From: an uncultured Verrucomicrobiales bacterium
Lineage (GTDB): Bacteria > Verrucomicrobiota > Verrucomicrobiia > Verrucomicrobiales > DEV007
Assembly: GCA_938091905.1 (NCBI GenBank)
Contig: CALKOM010000002.1
Span: 1 to 12,622 of the forward strand
Direction: 5' to 3'
Length of the DNA: 12,622 nt
Below are positions 220 to 12,469 of this stretch, piece by piece; the first letter of the stretch is position 1; the number at the start of each line of letters is the position of its first letter. The position numbers were made by a program, and so were the translations under genes. Below the pieces are notes generated by a model. The model was not told the DNA's origin and ran no database searches. It saw nothing but the letters and a program-made list of their open reading frames with translations.

Positions 220-1380
220 TTATGATTTTGTCGTGGTGAAAAGATAAGGATCCATCCAACCTTTCGTGCCTTGAGGAGGGATGAGGTCGAATGAAGTTGG
301 CTTCGCAGGGAGTCGGAAACTAACGCCAACGGGGAACCTGCCCTCGGGAGGCTTCCTTGTGTAGCGGCCTCCTCCCCAGTAGTCGCCCACGGCAACCAAG
401 TCGAAGCGAGACAGTTTCCCGTCCGTGAATGAGAGCTGGCCTACCAAATTAGCTTCGTAGCCGCTGGAGCCGTCGCTGCGGGCGAGGCGGACCTTGCCGC
501 GGATGTTGCCATCAATGTCGACCTTGAGCGAGGCTTGTTTCACGTCTTTCGGTTTCCAGAACGTGGGTTCTCCGCGGGTGTTATCGACCAAGTGATAGCG
601 AACTAAGCGTTGTGTGAGGGAACCCGTAAACACCCCGCGAGCCAACGCTTTTTGTTCTTTGGGTGTGATCCACAGGTTGTCACGAGACACGGCTTTCTGG
701 AAAATCTCGCGCCAGGAATCGTCAGTTTTCTCATAGCCACCTAGCACTTTAACGTGCGCGCGGGCAATGATCGTACCTTTGGGTGGGATGGCTTGGTATT
801 GCGGGTCTGCTTTCGTGACCTTAAGAGGCTGGGCAGCTTTGTTTGGAGAATAGTGCTTGAGTGCTTCAGTGAGCTGCTTCTTCACTTTCCAGTGGCCTCG
901 ATTGTTATTGAAAGCGAGGAGGTCACCGCTGGGAGAGATGGTGTAGAGTCCCTGTGTGGTTAAATTCACATCGTTCCGTGGACTTTGGGCGATGACCTCA
1001 CGCCAGAAGTCGCCTTCTTCGTCTTTCTGTTGTCGTTGATTGAACTGATCAATCGCGACAGGAACGAACTTTGTTTGGAGCAGCTCGATGATTTCAGGAT
1101 CGGCAAAGGTCGACGCACGGTCGAGGACGCCATTGTTTCAAGTGCAACCTAACGGGTGCCCATCCATGGCCCAAACAAAGAGAGGCTTGCCTTCTTTCAG
1201 TGCGAGTTGTTGCGCTGGCACGAGTGAGACTTGCCATGGAATCGTCGTCCATGCTTCCTTTGAGGGTCGTAGCGTTTGATGCCAGCTCGCAAAGGTTTTT
1301 GTAGTCAGTTCAGGACCACTCAGGACAGGGATTATTGAAAGCGTGAGTGCACCTATGGTCGCGAAGAGGATTCCTTGCAT
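220..1380 (-). CDS. Putative exported selenoprotein, 386 aa, Sec at residue 81 (TGA 1140-1138); thioredoxin-like (Thioredoxin_7/SelN-like) N-terminal domain plus an uncharacterised C-terminal domain
   Basis: Manual translation through the TGA gives ...IPWQVSLVPAQQLALKEGKPLFVWAMDGHPLGCT-U-NNGVLDRASTFADPEIIELLQTKFVPVAIDQFNQRQQKDEEGDFWREVIAQSPRNDVNLTTQGLY..., which joins the 220..969 ORF in frame. There are 56 stop-free codons between them. Thioredoxin-fold motifs lie on both sides of the TGA, and the N-terminus is hydrophobic like a signal peptide. ATG at 1380 is preferred over TTG at 1383. Confidence 0.85.
1101..1132 (-). promoter_or_regulatory. Candidate bacterial SECIS element
   Basis: The mRNA after UGA reads AACAA UGGCG UCC UCGAC CGUGC GUCGA CCUU UGCCG. 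Upper stem UCGAC/GUCGA; 5-nt loop CGUGC with G at loop position 2 followed by U; lower stem UGGCG/UGCCG. The loop starts 18 nt after UGA, matching the general bacterial SECIS model. Confidence 0.7.
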
Positions 1381-1385
1381 CAATC

Positions 1386-1436
1386 AAGAAATGGAGCGCA
1401 GCGGCCCTTGTCAACTGGTGTCCCCGCTCTCATCAT
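1386..1436. promoter_or_regulatory. Bidirectional sigma70-type promoter with overlapping -35 boxes
   Basis: Plus strand: TTGTCA(1408-1413)-17 nt-CATCAT(1431-1436)-5 nt-GTG(1442). Minus strand: TTGACA(1414-1409)-17 nt-TTTCTT(1391-1386)-5 nt-ATG(1380). Confidence 0.55.
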
Positions 1437-1441
1437 GGCGT

Positions 1442-2086
1442 GTGGCGACGTTTGTCCAATTTCTCTCGGATCTCTATGAAATAGGGCACGTGTCCTTGCC
1501 TGTCTTGGATCAGGGCGAGGGGCCAGACTTTGCATCACAGCGGGCGCAGGAACTGATTTCCTCACGCGATCAAACTTTGCGCCTCTCTGCAGCTGGATCT
1601 TTGCCCGAATTGGCGATGCCCGTGGCGCTAATGGGTGCTCGATGTCTCTACCTTGGCTGCCAGCTGTTTGTGGACCGCACCCGACCCATGACCGCGCTCG
1701 ATGGCTGTGTGCATGAAATTGGAAAACTAAGCCCAACCCCATCGACGGTGTATTCGTTGGATCTGGCCCTTGCCTTTCTGCCAGACCTGCATGCCCACGC
1801 GCGACAGCTTACGGAGGATGATGAACTCATGCGCCTCCTTGATCAACTGGCTCGACTGTGGCCATTCTCTACCGTGGGAATTCCCGAGAACGAGTCGGCC
1901 TGGGATCGAATCGCTCTGTGGTGGGACGACGTTAGCCTGCGGATCAGTTATGTGGATCGCCTCCTTGCTCGTGATGAGGGAGCTTGCCTGCGGCACGTGC
2001 CAGTGGCCGAGGCGGTGAAGGACGCGCTAGGCATGCGAGTCGAGGAACTCGCTGGGGATTCTGTAAGAACAATCTTGGCTACTTGA
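1442..2086 (+). CDS. bpX4-like protein (MoxR-vWA-beta-propeller ternary system accessory domain)
   Basis: Motifs FVQFLSDLYEIGHV, ARCLYLGCQLFVDR, VYSLDLALAFLPDL, LARLWPFSTVG and YVDRLL match my recollection of the bpX4 family. GTG 1442 is chosen as start because the ORF-track start (1343) overlaps the divergent gene and 1442 fits the promoter spacing. Confidence 0.65.
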   Translation: MATFVQFLSDLYEIGHVSLPVLDQGEGPDFASQRAQELISSRDQTLRLSAAGSLPELAMPVALMGARCLYLGCQLFVDRTRPMTALDGCVHEIGKLSPTPSTVYSLDLALAFLPDLHAHARQLTEDDELMRLLDQLARLWPFSTVGIPENESAWDRIALWWDDVSLRISYVDRLLARDEGACLRHVPVAEAVKDALGMRVEELAGDSVRTILAT

Positions 2087-3588: not shown

Positions 3589-4404
3589 TTAATTAGATTC
3601 TGTCCTGACTTCTAATTGAGTTAGGGCGGCGATCTCTGCCGGGACATCGTCGCTTCTCATCAGCGTTTCGCCAACGAGAATCGTGTTGGCACCCCAGTCA
3701 AAGACTTGCTGAGCATCTTTTCGGGATTTGATGCCACTTTCACTCACGAAGATAAGATCGTCGGCAATCTCAAGGCTCAGGGCTTCGGTTGTCTTGAGGT
3801 CGACCTCGAAGGTCTTCAAATTGCGATTATTGACCCCAATGATGCGGGCTTCCGTATCGAGAGCGCGGTGAAGCTCTTCCTCATCATGGACCTCCACAAG
3901 GACATCTAGCTGACTCATGTGGGAGATTTCTAACAGAGAAACGAGTTCGTCTTGTTCGAGGCAGGCCACGATCAGCAGAATCGCATCCGCGCCTGCAACG
4001 ACCGCTTCATAGATTTGTGCAGGGTGAATAATGAAATCCTTGCGGAGCAAAGGAACATCCACGCATTTGCGTATCTGTGAGAGATAACTGAGACTGCCTT
4101 GAAAGAACTTCTCATCGGTTAGAACCGAGATGGCGTTGGCTCCTGACTCAGCATAGATCTGCGCCTGTAGGATAGGGTCGAATTCCTCGGCGATGACGCC
4201 AGCGGAGGGGGAGGCTTTCTTCACCTCCGCGATGAGGGAAATTTGATCGAGCCCCTGATCAATAGCGCGCTCGAAGGAACGAAAGTCGTCTCTGGTCAGC
4301 GCGGCCGCACGAAGTTTGTCCTCTAGCGGAATGATCTTCTCGATTTCCGTGCGCTTGTGCGCAACGATTTCTTGAAGGCGGTTGGAAACGGGAGCGTTAC
4401 TCAT
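3589..4404 (-). CDS. trpC: Indole-3-glycerol phosphate synthase
   Basis: Motifs IAEVKKASPSAG, AISVLTD, LRKDF, GADAILLI, LVEVH, IGVNNRNL, VSESGI and LVGETLM. Confidence 0.97.
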   Translation of the reverse strand: MSNAPVSNRLQEIVAHKRTEIEKIIPLEDKLRAAALTRDDFRSFERAIDQGLDQISLIAEVKKASPSAGVIAEEFDPILQAQIYAESGANAISVLTDEKFFQGSLSYLSQIRKCVDVPLLRKDFIIHPAQIYEAVVAGADAILLIVACLEQDELVSLLEISHMSQLDVLVEVHDEEELHRALDTEARIIGVNNRNLKTFEVDLKTTEALSLEIADDLIFVSESGIKSRKDAQQVFDWGANTILVGETLMRSDDVPAEIAALTQLEVRTESN

Positions 4405-5117
4405 TGAAGCTTCGAGATGTCGATAAGGACGTCACCAATGCCCGGCTTGGCTGTGCCAGGCTTGGTTGTGCCGCGAACTACCTGAACGATGGCGTCTTCA
4501 GGCTGACTACTGGTTACCTTCACATTGGCCAAGAGTTCATAGCTATCTGGTCTACGAACCGCGAACTCCTGGTTGGGTGAGACGCCGTCGAGCATCCCTT
4601 TATTGATGGTGTAAAACTCCCATTCTGGTTCGTAATGGCTGATCTTGGCGATGACCGGTAGCTTGGCCATTGCCTGTTCGGCAGGCGACAGCCCTGCGAG
4701 CGGCGATGGTGGTGGTGATGGCAGCTCGGCGGCTGTCGGCGGTGAACTTGGTGCCGGAATATTGGCTGACATTCCGGGCGGGCGTTGTCCATCGGGTAGG
4801 GGCGCTGGGAGATTGCGGAGTTCATTGAAGCGTTCCTGAAGAGCGCTGGTCTCAGCCATCTGTTCTTGGAGGGCTGCTGAAGTTTGATCTGCCTTGGGAT
4901 CGCGCATGCCGAGCCGGGATTCGAGAGCCGCGAGGCGCTCTTTCATCGGCATATCTGCTTGCTGTTTCCAGGCTTCTTGGAAGCTCACCAAATCGTTGCG
5001 TAGCTGAGACACTTCGGTTTGGCCTTGGTAGTTGAGGAAGGCCATCGCTCCAAGAAGAAAAACGGAGACGACTTGGAGAATGACCAGCGTGGTCAGGAGG
5101 CTCTGGTAAGGTTTCAT
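4401..5117 (-). CDS. Hypothetical membrane-anchored protein (N-terminal TM helix, coiled coil, Pro-rich linker, C-terminal beta domain)
   Basis: 238-aa ORF with a hydrophobic stretch at about residues 7-28, a heptad-like Q/E/L region and PSSPP/PSPPPSP linker. Its stop overlaps the trpC start (ATGA, 4404-4401). Confidence 0.8.
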   Translation of the reverse strand: MKPYQSLLTTLVILQVVSVFLLGAMAFLNYQGQTEVSQLRNDLVSFQEAWKQQADMPMKERLAALESRLGMRDPKADQTSAALQEQMAETSALQERFNELRNLPAPLPDGQRPPGMSANIPAPSSPPTAAELPSPPPSPLAGLSPAEQAMAKLPVIAKISHYEPEWEFYTINKGMLDGVSPNQEFAVRRPDSYELLANVKVTSSQPEDAIVQVVRGTTKPGTAKPGIGDVLIDISKLQ

Positions 5118-6633: not shown

Positions 6634-8385
6634 CTATTGCGATTGCTCAATCGCGGCGCGTGCCGCTTTGAAGAAGTCGTCCTCGCTGATCTGCTCGGTA
6701 GTGCCATCGAGGCGTCCTACAGTACGCTGGTCATTGCCGTCAGGCTCAGGCGTGGCGAGGAGCACAGGATTTCCTGTCGCCGACACCGAAAGACCACTGA
6801 AATAGACGAGAGCGGTTTCTTCACCGTTTGGTTTCCGCCACTTCAAGGCCGACTCGTCTGTTAGATAGTCAGGCACCAAATCCGTGAGCGTGTCAGGGAA
6901 CGCGCCATTATTCTTCAAAGCATGCTGTTTCATGGCGGTAAGAATCGTGACCATATCCTCAGATGGGTCCTTAACCTCCCTACCGGTCTGAGGCCTGGAA
7001 TCGGCTTGGACAAGATCCTGAGTTTGGGCAGCCTCTGCGGCCAATTGCGCATTCATGAGGTTCGCCTGAGTCGTTCTCGCGCCCATCAAAGCGGCAGCCG
7101 GGAAGACCATGAGGGCCACAGCCGCAGACGATTTGAATGACTGACCACTATTCGCGACTGTGTGAATACCGTCTTCGGTGTGAGCGGAGACACTGGCAAC
7201 ACCGCCCAGGCTTTCGAGGACGAAGTCCACGATCTTGGTGGCTCCTTCTGGAGCGCCTTCTTGTGCCATGGCGTCTTTGACGACCGTGCCGAGGATATCC
7301 TTTAATCTTGGTGAGAAATAGGAGAAGGCATTGCCTTCCGTGGGGAGACCTTGCGATAGCGCGACATAACTAGCATCGCTCGTAATCTTCTCACCATTCC
7401 CTTCTTCACAAGCGGCCAAGAAGGCCGGAGTTGTAGAGAGGACAAGGCGATTGTTAGGCTGATCATGAATCAAGACGGGTTGGAACATCGAGAAGGGCGT
7501 ATTCGGAGGCACCTGCATGGTCAGGGTGGTGACGCCGTCGGCTTCTTCGCGCTGGAATGGGCCACCCTGAGGAATCATGGGGCCGAATTTCTCGAAGATC
7601 CATCCGAGGCCTCGAAGGTCTAACGTGAAGTCGAAAGCGGGGATGGTGACCATGTTGCCATCAATAGGAACCGTGAGCTTTTCTGTGTCGGAGAACTTTG
7701 CACTGAAGAGTGCGCGGCCATTCATCTTGTCGATGACCTCACTGGCGGTCATGCCGACGTTAGGAATCTCCATTTGCAGCATTTGCTCCAGCGGTGGCGC
7801 ACCCGCTTCTGGTGGCAGGTGCGGCCAAATTCCCAGGGCGACTTCCTTAAGTGCGTTCAGCCTAAACTCTTGTTCGATAACAATATCTGAACCAGCAGGT
7901 GCAGCGTTCAAGGCAAGCAGTGGGGAAGACTCTTTGCCAAAGAGGGTCATCAGTCCTTTTGCCCCTTCCGGAGTGTGAATGAACATTTGATTCCGATAGG
8001 AATCAGCGGAGGTGCCGACGGAGCTAGCACCCATGGCTGTGATATCCTTGAGTCCGAGCGGCGAGACGAGGCCATCGAGGTTGAGATCCGGGATATCGGC
8101 TCCCGTTTCGTCTCGGATCGTGTCCATGGCCTTCTGGCCAAATTCTAGCAGACGATTCAAGTCGCCATCGATGTCAATGTAGCCATAGAAGATGCCGCCT
8201 TGGTCGAGATGTTTAGCAACATCGACAAAGTGTGAAGATGGCTTGGCCTTGCCATCAATGGCAGCGACGACCCTCTTTACTTCTTTGGCTGCGGGCTCGG
8301 TTGGCTTGTCGCCGCAACTAGTGAGTGGAATGAGAAGACCCAGGGCAGAGACCTGGCATGAGAGGACAGTAGCTCTAAACTTCAT
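6634..8385 (-). CDS. Large lipoprotein with an internal hydrophobic helix and a C-terminal pilin/DUF1559-like domain
   Basis: Lipobox LTSC (Cys24). Hydrophobic SAAVALMVFPAAALMGAR followed by ILTAMKQHALKNNGAFPDTLTDLVPDYL and RTVGRLDG, which resemble PVC prepilin-like/H-X9-DG-type domains. Confidence 0.75.
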   Translation of the reverse strand: MKFRATVLSCQVSALGLLIPLTSCGDKPTEPAAKEVKRVVAAIDGKAKPSSHFVDVAKHLDQGGIFYGYIDIDGDLNRLLEFGQKAMDTIRDETGADIPDLNLDGLVSPLGLKDITAMGASSVGTSADSYRNQMFIHTPEGAKGLMTLFGKESSPLLALNAAPAGSDIVIEQEFRLNALKEVALGIWPHLPPEAGAPPLEQMLQMEIPNVGMTASEVIDKMNGRALFSAKFSDTEKLTVPIDGNMVTIPAFDFTLDLRGLGWIFEKFGPMIPQGGPFQREEADGVTTLTMQVPPNTPFSMFQPVLIHDQPNNRLVLSTTPAFLAACEEGNGEKITSDASYVALSQGLPTEGNAFSYFSPRLKDILGTVVKDAMAQEGAPEGATKIVDFVLESLGGVASVSAHTEDGIHTVANSGQSFKSSAAVALMVFPAAALMGARTTQANLMNAQLAAEAAQTQDLVQADSRPQTGREVKDPSEDMVTILTAMKQHALKNNGAFPDTLTDLVPDYLTDESALKWRKPNGEETALVYFSGLSVSATGNPVLLATPEPDGNDQRTVGRLDGTTEQISEDDFFKAARAAIEQSQ

Positions 8386-9007: not shown

Positions 9008-9223
9008 CTACTCCGAACCCTCTTTTTCCTCCACATCTGAAGGGATCACCTTGCCCTCGATGATTTCTTGCAGGGCAATGTCTGCTTGCCCCATGCGTCC
9101 TTGCACTGCAATCAGCGGAGGGCGGCCTTGATTCAGTTGCCTGACTCGCTTGGACACGATGTTGATAAGAAGGGGGATGTCACTGATGACCTTAGATGCT
9201 TGTTCAACTAGCTGGCTTTTCAT
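9008..9223 (-). CDS. rpoZ: RNA polymerase omega subunit (71 aa)
   Basis: MKSQLVEQASKVISDIPLLINIVSKRVRQLNQGRPPLI...DIALQEIIEGKV is the omega signature (SKR-RQL, IAL-EI-EG). True start is ATG 9223; the ORF-track extension to 9487 is non-homologous and overlaps the next gene. Confidence 0.9.
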   Translation of the reverse strand: MKSQLVEQASKVISDIPLLINIVSKRVRQLNQGRPPLIAVQGRMGQADIALQEIIEGKVIPSDVEEKEGSE

Positions 9224-9372
9224 AGGCAAGGCCTGAGGCTGGATCGCTGTGCTGCCTCCCGCAGCGGGGGGGGGAAGTCGATGATCTTTGTGGAGGACAT
9301 GAACAGCGTTACTACCTAAAGCGTTGGGGTAGGGTGAATTATAATAAAAGAATCCGACGATTAGGGAGTCTG

Positions 9373-9400
9373 CGCTTATCACCAGACGCGTGGTTGTCAA
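9373..9400 (-). promoter_or_regulatory. Possible promoter for rpoZ-smpB
   Basis: Perfect TTGACA (9400-9395), 16-nt spacer, weak -10 TAAGCG (9378-9373). Implies a leader of about 140 nt. Confidence 0.35.
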
Positions 9401-9419
9401 CATGAAATTCAGTGGGAAA

Positions 9420-10625
9420 TCACTTAGCGCTGATGTCGAATGATCTCGCGTAGGCGCTAGGGCGTTTAGAAATGAACACATTTCCATCGATTAAATGAGC
9501 GAGTGATTGTTCCTCAAGACGCATTTCCAGTCCCTGAAGCGGAGCCTTCAGCGATGCTGCAGCCCCCCTGAAGATATCTGGACGATAAGTACTTAAGACC
9601 ATGGCTTCGAGTTCGGCATCGGTGAGCGAACCGGGAAGATGGCCCCAGCGCATCATCTGGGTTGCAATCCACAGGGCATGGTTCTGATCGGGAGCCGCAC
9701 TTGCGTTCGTTCCGAACGTCACCATGTGGGAAATGTCTTTCCCAAAGTGGGGCAGTGTGTTCTCCAGGTCGGCTCTGGCTTGCGTCCGATTCTCGCTACT
9801 AGCATCGAGCCACTGACCCGCCTCGATTAAAGCGGCGACGACAGTGATCAAGGTTTCACGATTGGCTTCTGCCCATGACTCTGAACATGCAAGGACTGAC
9901 GTTGGGACGTCGCGAAGAATGGCGCTCGTCGTGATCACCGGCTTCCCATGCTTCGTGCCGGTGAATCCTTGGGCCGATCCTCTTAAACCGGGGGCCGTGG
10001 AAACAGCGACACTGGCCCGGTCTAAATGCGGATGAGGGGATTCAATGATCACCCCGCTCATGATGGGTGTCACCCCGGCAGCTCCCAACCAATAGCACAG
10101 TGTGTAAGCAATCGTGTCGTGTAAGGAGGCGACTGAGAATGTGAGAGGAGGATTCCCATTTCCAACTGCCTGGGCGACTCGAAGGAGGGCATCGGCAGAA
10201 ATTGGACGAACCGGATCGCCGTCGGCATCGAGGAGCATGTGAGATTGCATCTGATTCCAAAGCTCTTCAGTGACGGAAATCTGCCCGCCATTTCTCGTCA
10301 AAATGTGAGGAACAATCACGGCACTCTCTGAAAGAAGTGCTTCAGCAGGCGAGAGCATGCCGATGTCGAGCTGACCATTAGTTAGCTGCTCCCGGATTTC
10401 TTCGGTAGTTGAGTGTGTGGTTAGGGAAAGTTCGACGTTGGCCTTCCCAAAGAGCCCTTGTTTCTCCGCGATGAGGATGGGTGCTGCACCTAGATTTGCA
10501 GTGACTCCGACCCGTATCACCTTGACGTCAGGTATAACGATGGGGACTTTTTCAGCCTCTTCTTTCTTACAGGAGGCTAGTGCCATCATGACCAGTGCGA
10601 TGAGGAGGGACAACAGGCGGAGCAT
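9420..10625 (-). CDS. CmpA/NrtA-family ABC substrate-binding lipoprotein (divergent, orphan)
   Basis: Lipobox LASC (Cys19). Motifs APILIAEKQGLF, NGQLD, RNGGQISV..LW, DGDPVRPISADAL, YWLGAAGVTP, ALIEAGQWLD, ALWIATQMMRWG and YRPDIFR are all NrtA/CmpA-type. Confidence 0.85.
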   Translation of the reverse strand: MLRLLSLLIALVMMALASCKKEEAEKVPIVIPDVKVIRVGVTANLGAAPILIAEKQGLFGKANVELSLTTHSTTEEIREQLTNGQLDIGMLSPAEALLSESAVIVPHILTRNGGQISVTEELWNQMQSHMLLDADGDPVRPISADALLRVAQAVGNGNPPLTFSVASLHDTIAYTLCYWLGAAGVTPIMSGVIIESPHPHLDRASVAVSTAPGLRGSAQGFTGTKHGKPVITTSAILRDVPTSVLACSESWAEANRETLITVVAALIEAGQWLDASSENRTQARADLENTLPHFGKDISHMVTFGTNASAAPDQNHALWIATQMMRWGHLPGSLTDAELEAMVLSTYRPDIFRGAAASLKAPLQGLEMRLEEQSLAHLIDGNVFISKRPSAYARSFDISAK

Positions 10626-11645: not shown

Positions 11646-11992
11646 TTGTCCAAACCATTTCGTGTCGGTCTCACATCGGATCTGAGATTCGAAGGAGCCT
11701 CAGGAGTGGGAGATTTGGGAATCGATTTGTTGGACACCAATACGCTCATTGCCTCATTACAGCTCGGAGCAGCCAACCGAGGTGGCCATTGATTACGATG
11801 CCCTGTTGGTGATGGCGCCAAGTGTGACACCGGCTCTCGGTCGTGATGTGCTTTGGTGTGGGCTGCGACAATGTGAATGTCGAGGCATGCACTTGCAACG
11901 ATGTCATGCTCGCGATCACGCCGGATGGCGTCAGTGCGATTGCGTTGCTTATGGCATTGTCACACAAATTACTGATCAAAGACCGACTGACT
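11646..11992 (+). pseudogene. D-isomer-specific 2-hydroxyacid dehydrogenase (SerA-like) N-terminal remnant
   Basis: Three successive frames give LSKPFRVGLTSD...GDLGIDLLD (from 11646), DYDALLVMAPSVT (from 11791) and FGVGCDNVNVEACTCNDVMLAITPDGV-SAIALLMALSHKLLIKDRLT (from 11852). The last matches the family GVGxDNVD...TP motif. The NAD-binding domain is absent. Confidence 0.75.
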
Positions 11993-12001
11993 TCTAGCCA
12001 A

Positions 12002-12136
12002 CAAGGCGACACCAATATAGACGCCATGGTAGCCGATGAGTCGGGGCACTTCGAGATGGTCACGCCGACGACCTCGACTTGGGCTGTCGTGCGCAACGCG
12101 TTTGAAGGCACGCTTGCTGACTTAACCAATCTGTAA
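12002..12136 (+). pseudogene. C-terminal remnant of an alpha/beta hydrolase (esterase/lipase)
   Basis: GDTNIDAMVADESGHFEMVTPTTSTWAVVRNAF* resembles the GD-strand-GHF-xx-xP-S-W-helix C-terminus that carries the catalytic His. Confidence 0.5.
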
Positions 12137-12469
12137 GCTTCTCGTCGATTTTCGGGCGGAGACGCGCAGCGCCATTCAGAAGATCTGCAAGTGCTCGTTA
12201 GCGGGCAGCGAGGAAATTCCCCTGCCAGCACCTGCCATTCCAGAGAGCGTCGACACCTTTGCGACCCAAGTTTGCTTTCCTGAAGGATCGATTGCGTGCT
12301 TTTGGTAAACATTCAGTTCGACAGCGTTTGGTGTCACTCTCAACCACAGCGACACATTCGAAAGCGCCGTCGCTAGCTGGCTAGGGCTAATCCATTAATT
12401 CGCTTAGAGCACTAACTCAGTGACTGTCAGTTCACGATGGTGATATATAGCGCTTGCAGATCCACTTCT

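Follow-up and report, generated by a model that had tools for sequence, protein, structure and literature searches.

A probable family of secreted thioredoxin-fold selenoproteins in Planctomycetota and Verrucomicrobiota

This study concerns one gene on the minus strand of a 12,622-nucleotide stretch of DNA (contig CALKOM010000002.1, from an uncultured Verrucomicrobiales bacterium), which at its full length is called the window here. Judging from sequence, this gene probably encodes a secreted, periplasmic selenoprotein of two domains that occurs in Planctomycetota and Verrucomicrobiota and would act as a thiol/selenol oxidoreductase. The family may be a new one among the bacterial thioredoxin-fold selenoproteins, though an earlier mention of it is possible.

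The gene is complete and spans 220..1380, from an ATG at 1380-1378 to a TAA at 222-220, and contains an in-frame TGA. When TGA is read as selenocysteine (Sec, U), positions 223-1380 give a read-through protein of 386 residues in which the single TGA is codon 81, at 1140-1138. Translation table 11 splits the frame into an open reading frame (ORF) of 81 codons at 1138..1383, followed in the same frame by ORFs at 966..1133 and 220..969 (249 amino acids). The original prediction had described a selenocysteine protein whose active-site region, at 1060-1245 (residues 46-107), resembles that of the eukaryotic selenoprotein SELENON, and the string it quoted, WAMDGHPLGCT-U-NNGVLDRASTFADPEIIELLQTKFVP, is present exactly, with U81 at the TGA. 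This codon closes the redox motif Cys79-Thr80-Sec81 (TGC ACT TGA, 1138..1146), which lies inside GHPLGCT-U-NNG. At the N-terminus, a hydrophobic segment of about residues 1-23 (1312..1380, minus strand) reads as a predicted signal peptide with a putative cleavage site. Its best 10-residue Kyte-Doolittle mean is 2.33, and this mean is at least 1.6 in 77 of the 79 family sequences in which the N-terminus could be judged. We infer that the protein is exported by this N-terminal signal and is extracytoplasmic or periplasmic, as had been predicted.

Decoding of the in-frame TGA

The comparative evidence indicates that the in-frame TGA is a genuine selenocysteine codon. A genome scan using one genome per species found 226 related loci, and the best 80 of these were kept; they belong mostly to Planctomycetota and in several cases to Verrucomicrobiota, with one labelled Omnitrophota and two Alcaligenaceae. 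All 81 sequences (the window and these 80 loci) have TGA at this codon, and the protein is conserved on both sides of it, with invariant flanks, which bears out the earlier description of a selenocysteine protein. The context of the codon reads W-A-M-D-G-H-P-L-G-C-T-(TGA)-N-N-G-V-L-D-R, and W70, M72, D73, G74, H75, P76, C79, T80, N82, N83, D87 and R88 were invariant in 40 of 40 aligned full-length sequences. Planctomycetes with the full Sec machinery have been reported, as seen in part of PMC4807772. Two of the loci, L001 and L004, come from one Verrucomicrobiales metagenome-assembled genome (contigs 15 and 14 of the same assembly) and are 58% and 55% identical to the query; both carry the TGA, so some genomes have two Sec paralogues. 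The 598-residue form encoded at another locus, L057 (4899-6692), was considered as a fusion and rejected, since its frame changes about 35 residues before the normal C-terminus and it has no extra Pfam domain. Its tail is unrelated sequence past the frame change and is probably an assembly error or a pseudogene.

If the TGA were a real stop, the locus would hold two genes or a broken gene, with a secreted peptide of 80 residues followed by a protein of 250-300 residues. Gene callers annotate it in this way, and the databases reflect this. A word-indexed search for relatives gave 1255 clusters at 90% identity, and 119 of the best 120 that were inspected are truncated, covering no more than 78% of the query. 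An exhaustive hidden Markov model search of 1.84 billion representatives with a profile of the N-terminal thioredoxin-like domain gave 1289 matches at E<=0.001; among the best 150 of the 1289 (down to E 1.4e-15), 103 begin just past the TGA position, 11 end exactly before it, 33 span it and 3 are otherwise placed. In addition, the energy of the RNA hairpin described below is not significant by itself. However, the annotated downstream starts are internal codons of a conserved helix: the seven truncated relatives for which the sequence was inspected start at a Val or Met codon 4 or 19 residues past the TGA. One thioredoxin fold, modelled with high confidence, spans the TGA, and the junction shows no gap, frameshift or change of spacing in any of the 81 sequences. 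Uninterrupted Cys homologues also exist, as the 33 spanning representatives have Cys at the Sec position in 10 cases (6 of them as C-x-C), W in 1, R in 1 and other residues in 21. Finally, synonymous sites show constraint at the RNA level only within the hairpin. Taken with these points, a true stop at codon 81 is considered very improbable.

Another possibility is that TGA is read here as a standard amino acid (Trp or Gly, as in codes 4/25) and not as selenocysteine. P0007 is the single long match among the best 120 database relatives, and its entry and that of P0226 both show W at the Sec position, so some pipeline evidently used TGA as Trp. However, TGA is the stop of 5 of the 12 neighbouring ORFs in the window, three of which have full-length Pfam matches (bpX4, NMT1_2 and a methyltransferase), and in-frame TGA codons are absent from all 12. 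The single in-frame TGA of the family also falls always at the redox position, which is Cys in homologues. A reassigned code is regarded as extremely improbable.

Selenocysteine decoding is further suggested by a candidate bacterial selenocysteine insertion sequence (SECIS) hairpin, which starts 13 nucleotides (nt) past the TGA. The core of the hairpin (1110..1124, minus strand; nt 17-31 counted from the U of UGA) is a stem of 5 base pairs, UCGAC/GUCGA, around the loop CGUGC, and in the window it is extended by an outer stem, GGCG/UGCC (1102..1131, minus strand). The 60 nt from the UGA of the window fold at -10.9 kcal/mol with outer pairs 10-13/36-39, and this outer stem is not kept in all relatives. 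Across 77 distinct sequences, 99.7% of the 385 cells of the core stem are paired, compared with 3-40% of cells in slid controls. Pair 18/30 is CG in 68 of the sequences, UA in 8 and GC in 1; both of its bases are third positions of synonymous codons (Leu CUC/CUU/CUG and Ser UCG/UCA/UCC), its changes are compensatory, and the covariation score was reached by 0 of 500 shuffles. The wobble positions inside the hairpin (21, 24 and 27) are invariant, and all 80 distinct sequences have CGU as the Arg codon of the loop; at the flanking wobble positions 12, 33, 39 and 45 each of the four bases occurs. The model of bacterial SECIS elements in section 5 of PMC13188914 has a loop of 3-9 nt, a G in the first two loop positions and a spacing of 16-37 nt, and the hairpin fits that section's model with a loop of 5 nt (CGUGC, with G and U at the second and third positions) and a spacing of 18 nt. 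In bacteria, SelB inserts selenocysteine at just such an arrangement, a conserved UGA with a hairpin that is itself conserved and carries GU in its loop at the appropriate spacing downstream.

The thioredoxin-like domain and the question of kinship to SELENON

The N-terminal part of the protein, about residues 40-178 (847..1263, minus strand), is predicted to be a thioredoxin-like domain similar to DUF255/Thioredoxin_7, as indicated by AlphaFold2, Foldseek and weak Pfam matches. From an alignment of 40 sequences, AlphaFold2 modelled the whole protein with a predicted local distance difference test (pLDDT) score of 87.7 and a predicted template modelling (pTM) score of 0.86. The domain consists of a strand (67-72), a helix (82-103), a strand (106-111), a helix (112-131), two strands (144-148 and 154-158) and a helix (163-176), and this beta-alpha-beta-alpha-beta-beta-alpha topology is similar to that of solved members of the DUF255/Thioredoxin_7 subgroup. 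In the model, the TGA falls within a single fold, with strand 1 before it and helix 1 after it. The top Foldseek matches in the PDB were 3f9u (E 9.7e-4, TM-score to the target 0.60), 3ira, 7tkv, 2dlx, 1sen (ERp19) and 3ph9, with a probability of 1.00 for the first five, and the neighbours also included AGR2/AGR3, ERp18, DsbH and DsbD-gamma.

Comparison of 3ira with the profile of a 36-sequence superfamily alignment (A5; E 0.076) placed Sec81 opposite the first Cys of C-H-W-C and G84 opposite the second Cys. In the model, Sec81 is at the N-terminal end of helix 1, the nucleophilic first-Cys position of CxxC, which agrees with the active-site position that had been predicted for it. In the same profile alignment GHPLG is a five-residue loop insertion relative to 3ira that is specific to the family, and Cys79 lies in this loop, two residues upstream of Sec81. 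Sequence searches of the PDB, made with the protein itself and with profiles of the family and of the domain, gave chance-level matches only. Neither MPT64 (E 0.062) nor ATP synthase subunit b was retained, as the folds are unrelated or the matches too weak to be significant. The carboxyltransferase AccD1 (4q0g) shows a local GHPxG..NNGVL likeness (E 0.045-0.53) and was rejected as a chance match to an unrelated fold; the stretch concerned is residues 72-109 (about 1054-1167, minus strand; GHPLGCT.NNGVL...EL).

Among known groups, the domain resembles DUF255/Thioredox_DsbH (PF03190; 3ira and 7tkv, ranks 2 and 4 in Foldseek) in its thioredoxin fold, including the leading helix, in an active site at the start of helix 1 and in the hydrophobic pattern of helix 1 and strand 2 (F+11, I/V+16, L+19, L/M+20, F+24, then V.V.D). 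However, its Pfam scores are only 12.6-18 bits against a gathering cut-off of 27, it has C-x-U with an upstream partner Cys instead of CxxC, plus the GHPLG insertion, and its C-terminal partner is a beta-rich domain with no structural match in the PDB. Thioredoxin_7 (PF13899) and DsbD-type proteins (3f9u, 1uc7 and Chlamydia DsbH 2ju5) are likewise extracytoplasmic thioredoxin-like redox domains, and 3f9u is the best Foldseek match; but no sequence match to them is significant, and the family differs in having Sec for Cys, another motif spacing and another domain partner. The UAS domain and the thioredoxin-like proteins of the endoplasmic reticulum (UBXD7 UAS 2dlx, ERp19 1sen, AGR2/AGR3 and ERp18) belong to the same Thioredoxin_7-like subgroup, with Foldseek probabilities of 0.85-1.00, but they are eukaryotic, have Cys or no redox residue, lack the C-terminal beta domain and share 12-18% identity with the protein.

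No model in Pfam or NCBIfam covers the family above threshold. The only NCBIfam match is the VPGUxxT Trx-like selenoprotein type 2 (NF041383), which is also a bacterial thioredoxin-like selenoprotein of similar size (profile of 287 positions) and aligns at profile positions 4-74 with residues 46-122; with 15.7 bits (E 0.0087) where the cut-off is 275, the protein is not a member, and its Sec motif is GCTU and not VPGU. A table in PMC13188914, a 2026 review, lists four C-x-U selenoprotein families (NF041203, NF041198, NF041072 and PF13192), and none of these matched the window protein. The motif strings of the family were not found in the literature searched, searches for planctomycete or verrucomicrobial selenoproteins found no description of it, and none of the terms searched for occurs in the deep-Sep paper PMC12013277. 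Table S9 of PMC4807772 does list a "hypothetical" SECIS-positive planctomycete candidate whose closest match has Cys, and this may or may not be a member of the family.

The original prediction also proposed that the domain is a bacterial relative of the catalytic domain of SELENON, based on seven coincident positions. On the bacterial side all of these are in place: G84 (+3 from Sec), R88 (+7), F92 (+11), I97 (+16), L100 and L101 (+19/20) and F105 (+24). They were aligned with a presumed SELENON fragment that has an Arg at +7, and PMC12839072 confirms only SCUG and an Arg at +4. The residues at +11, +16, +19/20 and +24 also occur in the archaeal DUF255 protein 3ira when it is aligned to the family profile. 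This suggests that five of the seven coincidences reflect a general helix-1/strand-2 pattern of the subgroup and not a SELENON-specific signal, and only G(+3) and R(+7) are not explained by 3ira.

A relationship to SELENON closer than that to DUF255, Thioredoxin_7 or UAS domains is nonetheless worth weighing. Both would have an active-site loop longer than that of DUF255; the loop of the family is 5 residues longer than in 3ira, and for SELENON the greater length would follow from the presumed fragment. Within the bacterial superfamily, all 36 sequences in A5 and all 33 spanning representatives have the Arg at +7, and presumably it is present in SELENON. The thioredoxin-like region of SELENON has been likened to UAS domains, and the UAS domain 2dlx is among the structural neighbours of the domain. 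The protein resembles SELENON further in having Sec outside the cytoplasm (extracytoplasmic here and luminal there), a thioredoxin-like region around Sec and a partner Cys just upstream of it, unlike CxxC, as far as the excerpted text of PMC12839072 describes SELENON with its SCUG motif, EF-hand and type II anchor. The same excerpt places an Arg four residues after Sec in SELENON, from p.Sec462Arg and p.Arg466Gln.

There are also differences. The prediction of C-x-U in place of SCU holds, as the motif GCTUNNG is invariant in the family, but this also means that the spacing is C-x-U against C-U and that SCUG in SELENON faces G-C-T-U-N-N-G here. The window protein has no EF-hand or other SELENON-type Pfam domain and no type II anchor, and only about 55 residues lie between its signal peptide and the active site. 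Domain order and partner domain differ as well, since the thioredoxin-like domain is N-terminal here and is followed by an unrelated domain of 200 residues. SELENON has a SECIS in the 3' untranslated region, whereas the bacterial hairpin is in frame within the coding region. The best 150 of the 1289 profile matches were all bacterial-type family members, no SELENON entry was among the PDB Foldseek matches listed, and a literature search found no paper on bacterial SelN homologues. The specific relationship is not supported as it was proposed, because the searches led to DUF255/Thioredox_DsbH, Thioredoxin_7, UAS and AGR/ERp18-19 and because motif and architecture differ. Kinship to SELENON is unproven rather than refuted, and it is demonstrable only as membership of the same broad thioredoxin-like subgroup; a specific relationship is considered unlikely.

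Proposed chemistry, the C-terminal domain and the wider superfamily

In the mechanism proposed here, Sec81 and Cys79 would cycle between a selenolate/thiol pair and a selenenylsulfide, and the protein would act as an extracytoplasmic thiol/selenol oxidoreductase on a periplasmic substrate. The C-terminal beta-rich domain would supply recognition of the substrate or ligand, a role suggested by the conservation of this domain in non-redox relatives fused to signalling proteins. In those relatives the module, most often lacking the redox pair, would make up the C-terminal and presumably extracytoplasmic region of Ser/Thr kinases, of FecR-type anti-sigma factors and of a fusion to an extracytoplasmic function (ECF) sigma factor. 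The form with Sec that stands alone would be the catalytic version of a binding or sensing module.

The C-terminal domain covers about residues 190-386 (223..813, minus strand) and carries the motifs SRDNLW and FHLVDNTRGEP; the beta-rich part of the AlphaFold2 model is 204-380. When folded alone it gave a pLDDT of 87.4 and a pTM of 0.84. Comparison with the PDB found nothing better than E 0.019 or TM 0.27, and Pfam and NCBIfam had no match to it. Lipocalin, PYR/PYL and START-like folds were considered (probability <=0.5, TM <=0.27) and not assigned. This domain thus has a predicted fold without a solved structural relative.

The uninterrupted representatives have the same two-domain module without Sec. 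A Pfam scan of 18 such proteins found that the module follows a protein kinase in 4, FecR in 8 and ECF sigma regions 2 and 4 in 1. The FecR-fused forms lack both chalcogen positions. C-x-C is kept in the C-terminal module of P0132, a protein of 840 amino acids fused to a Ser/Thr kinase, which would fit a redox-sensing receptor kinase. Gly74, Pro76 and Arg88 are invariant throughout A5, and the C-terminal HL.D.TRGE region is kept in divergent members of the superfamily. Judging from the sequences, the superfamily keeps the C-terminal domain even in members that have lost the redox residues. Fusion to kinases, FecR anti-sigma factors and an ECF sigma factor suggests that the module is probably a binding or sensing unit.

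The main functional rival to oxidoreductase chemistry is metal binding, in which the Cys-x-Sec pair, together with the invariant His75 of GHPLG, would bind a soft metal or a metalloid, for example Cu, Hg or As, and the protein would function in the periplasm as a metal chaperone or sensor. Several bacterial selenoprotein families are metal-related, some of them with closely spaced Cys/Sec, according to the portion of PMC13188914 used here. His75 is invariant in the Sec family, and ligand sensing is suggested by the kinases and anti-sigma factors in which the module presumably forms the extracytoplasmic part. However, His75, Gly74, Pro76 and Arg88 are still conserved in members that lack both Cys and Sec, which argues that they do not form a dedicated metal site together with the chalcogens. 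No conserved metal-resistance or transport genes adjoin the gene, and Sec at the nucleophilic Cys position of a thioredoxin fold favours redox chemistry. A metal-binding role is accordingly judged quite unlikely.

Several results count against the interpretation of the gene as a secreted selenoprotein with oxidoreductase activity. With regard to decoding, no tRNA was found in the 12.6-kb window, and Rfam at its gathering threshold gave no match there. The energy of the hairpin is unexceptional (z = -1.38, with 23 of 200 shuffles as good), so that it is conservation and covariation which speak for the hairpin. The covariation in turn rests on a single pair, because the other four of the five stem pairs carry none, being invariant or having one unpaired cell at most, and the 8 UA sequences are probably from few lineages. 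With regard to the fold, none of the matches to Thioredox_DsbH (PF03190; 40 of 40 members) or to Thioredoxin_7 (30 of 40) reached the gathering score; on the whole protein PF03190 scored 12.6 bits against the cut-off of 27, and the best of the 40 members had E 1.9e-4. This suggests that the family is a divergent relative of these Pfam families and not a member. As the Pfam and PDB sequence matches are all below significance, the fold assignment rests on the AlphaFold2 model and Foldseek. With regard to function, the proposed redox chemistry with its selenenylsulfide is inferred, as is the role given to the C-terminal domain, and no conserved gene neighbourhood that might hint at a substrate was found, the largest neighbour family being present at 10 of 77 loci on mixed sides and strands.

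Genomic surroundings and meaning of the family

The divergent neighbour of the gene in the window (1343-2086, plus strand) has a bpX4 domain (Pfam E 5.5e-34), which belongs to a MoxR-vWA-beta-propeller ternary system; other parts of that system were not seen in the window. The GTG start listed for this neighbour overlaps the first codons of the selenoprotein, so its true start is probably further in. Four ORFs on the minus strand, at 6634-8385, 2079-2702, 4401-5117 and 11746-12312 (583, 207, 238 and 188 amino acids, respectively), have no Pfam match at E 0.001 and sit among housekeeping genes, namely a trpC-like gene for indole-3-glycerol phosphate synthase, folD, smpB and rpoZ. Two minus-strand ORFs, one for an RpoZ-like protein (9008-9487) and one for an NMT1_2 protein (9420-10625), have 68 bases in common (9420-9487), which suggests that one of the two start codons was called too far upstream.

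One further proposal is that the GHPLG module is an undescribed bacterial superfamily and that the catalytic domain of SELENON has its prokaryotic sister in the thioredoxin-like domain of this module. This is improbable on present evidence. If it were true, the two would share an extended active-site loop, an upstream partner Cys and an invariant Arg at +7, and an abundant, soluble protein from culturable hosts would offer a tractable model for the chemistry of SELENON, a human disease protein of unknown mechanism. In that case the relatives fused to kinases and anti-sigma factors would show that the fold first served for sensing outside the cytoplasm.

The analysis suggests that a family which is mostly annotated as truncated "hypothetical protein" carries Sec in every close genome examined, and that its C-terminal half has a fold that may be new among solved structures. 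The fusions to kinases and FecR point to an unrecognised sensor domain, of which the stand-alone form would have become a selenoenzyme. A curated model of the family would fix hundreds of annotations in Planctomycetota and Verrucomicrobiota.

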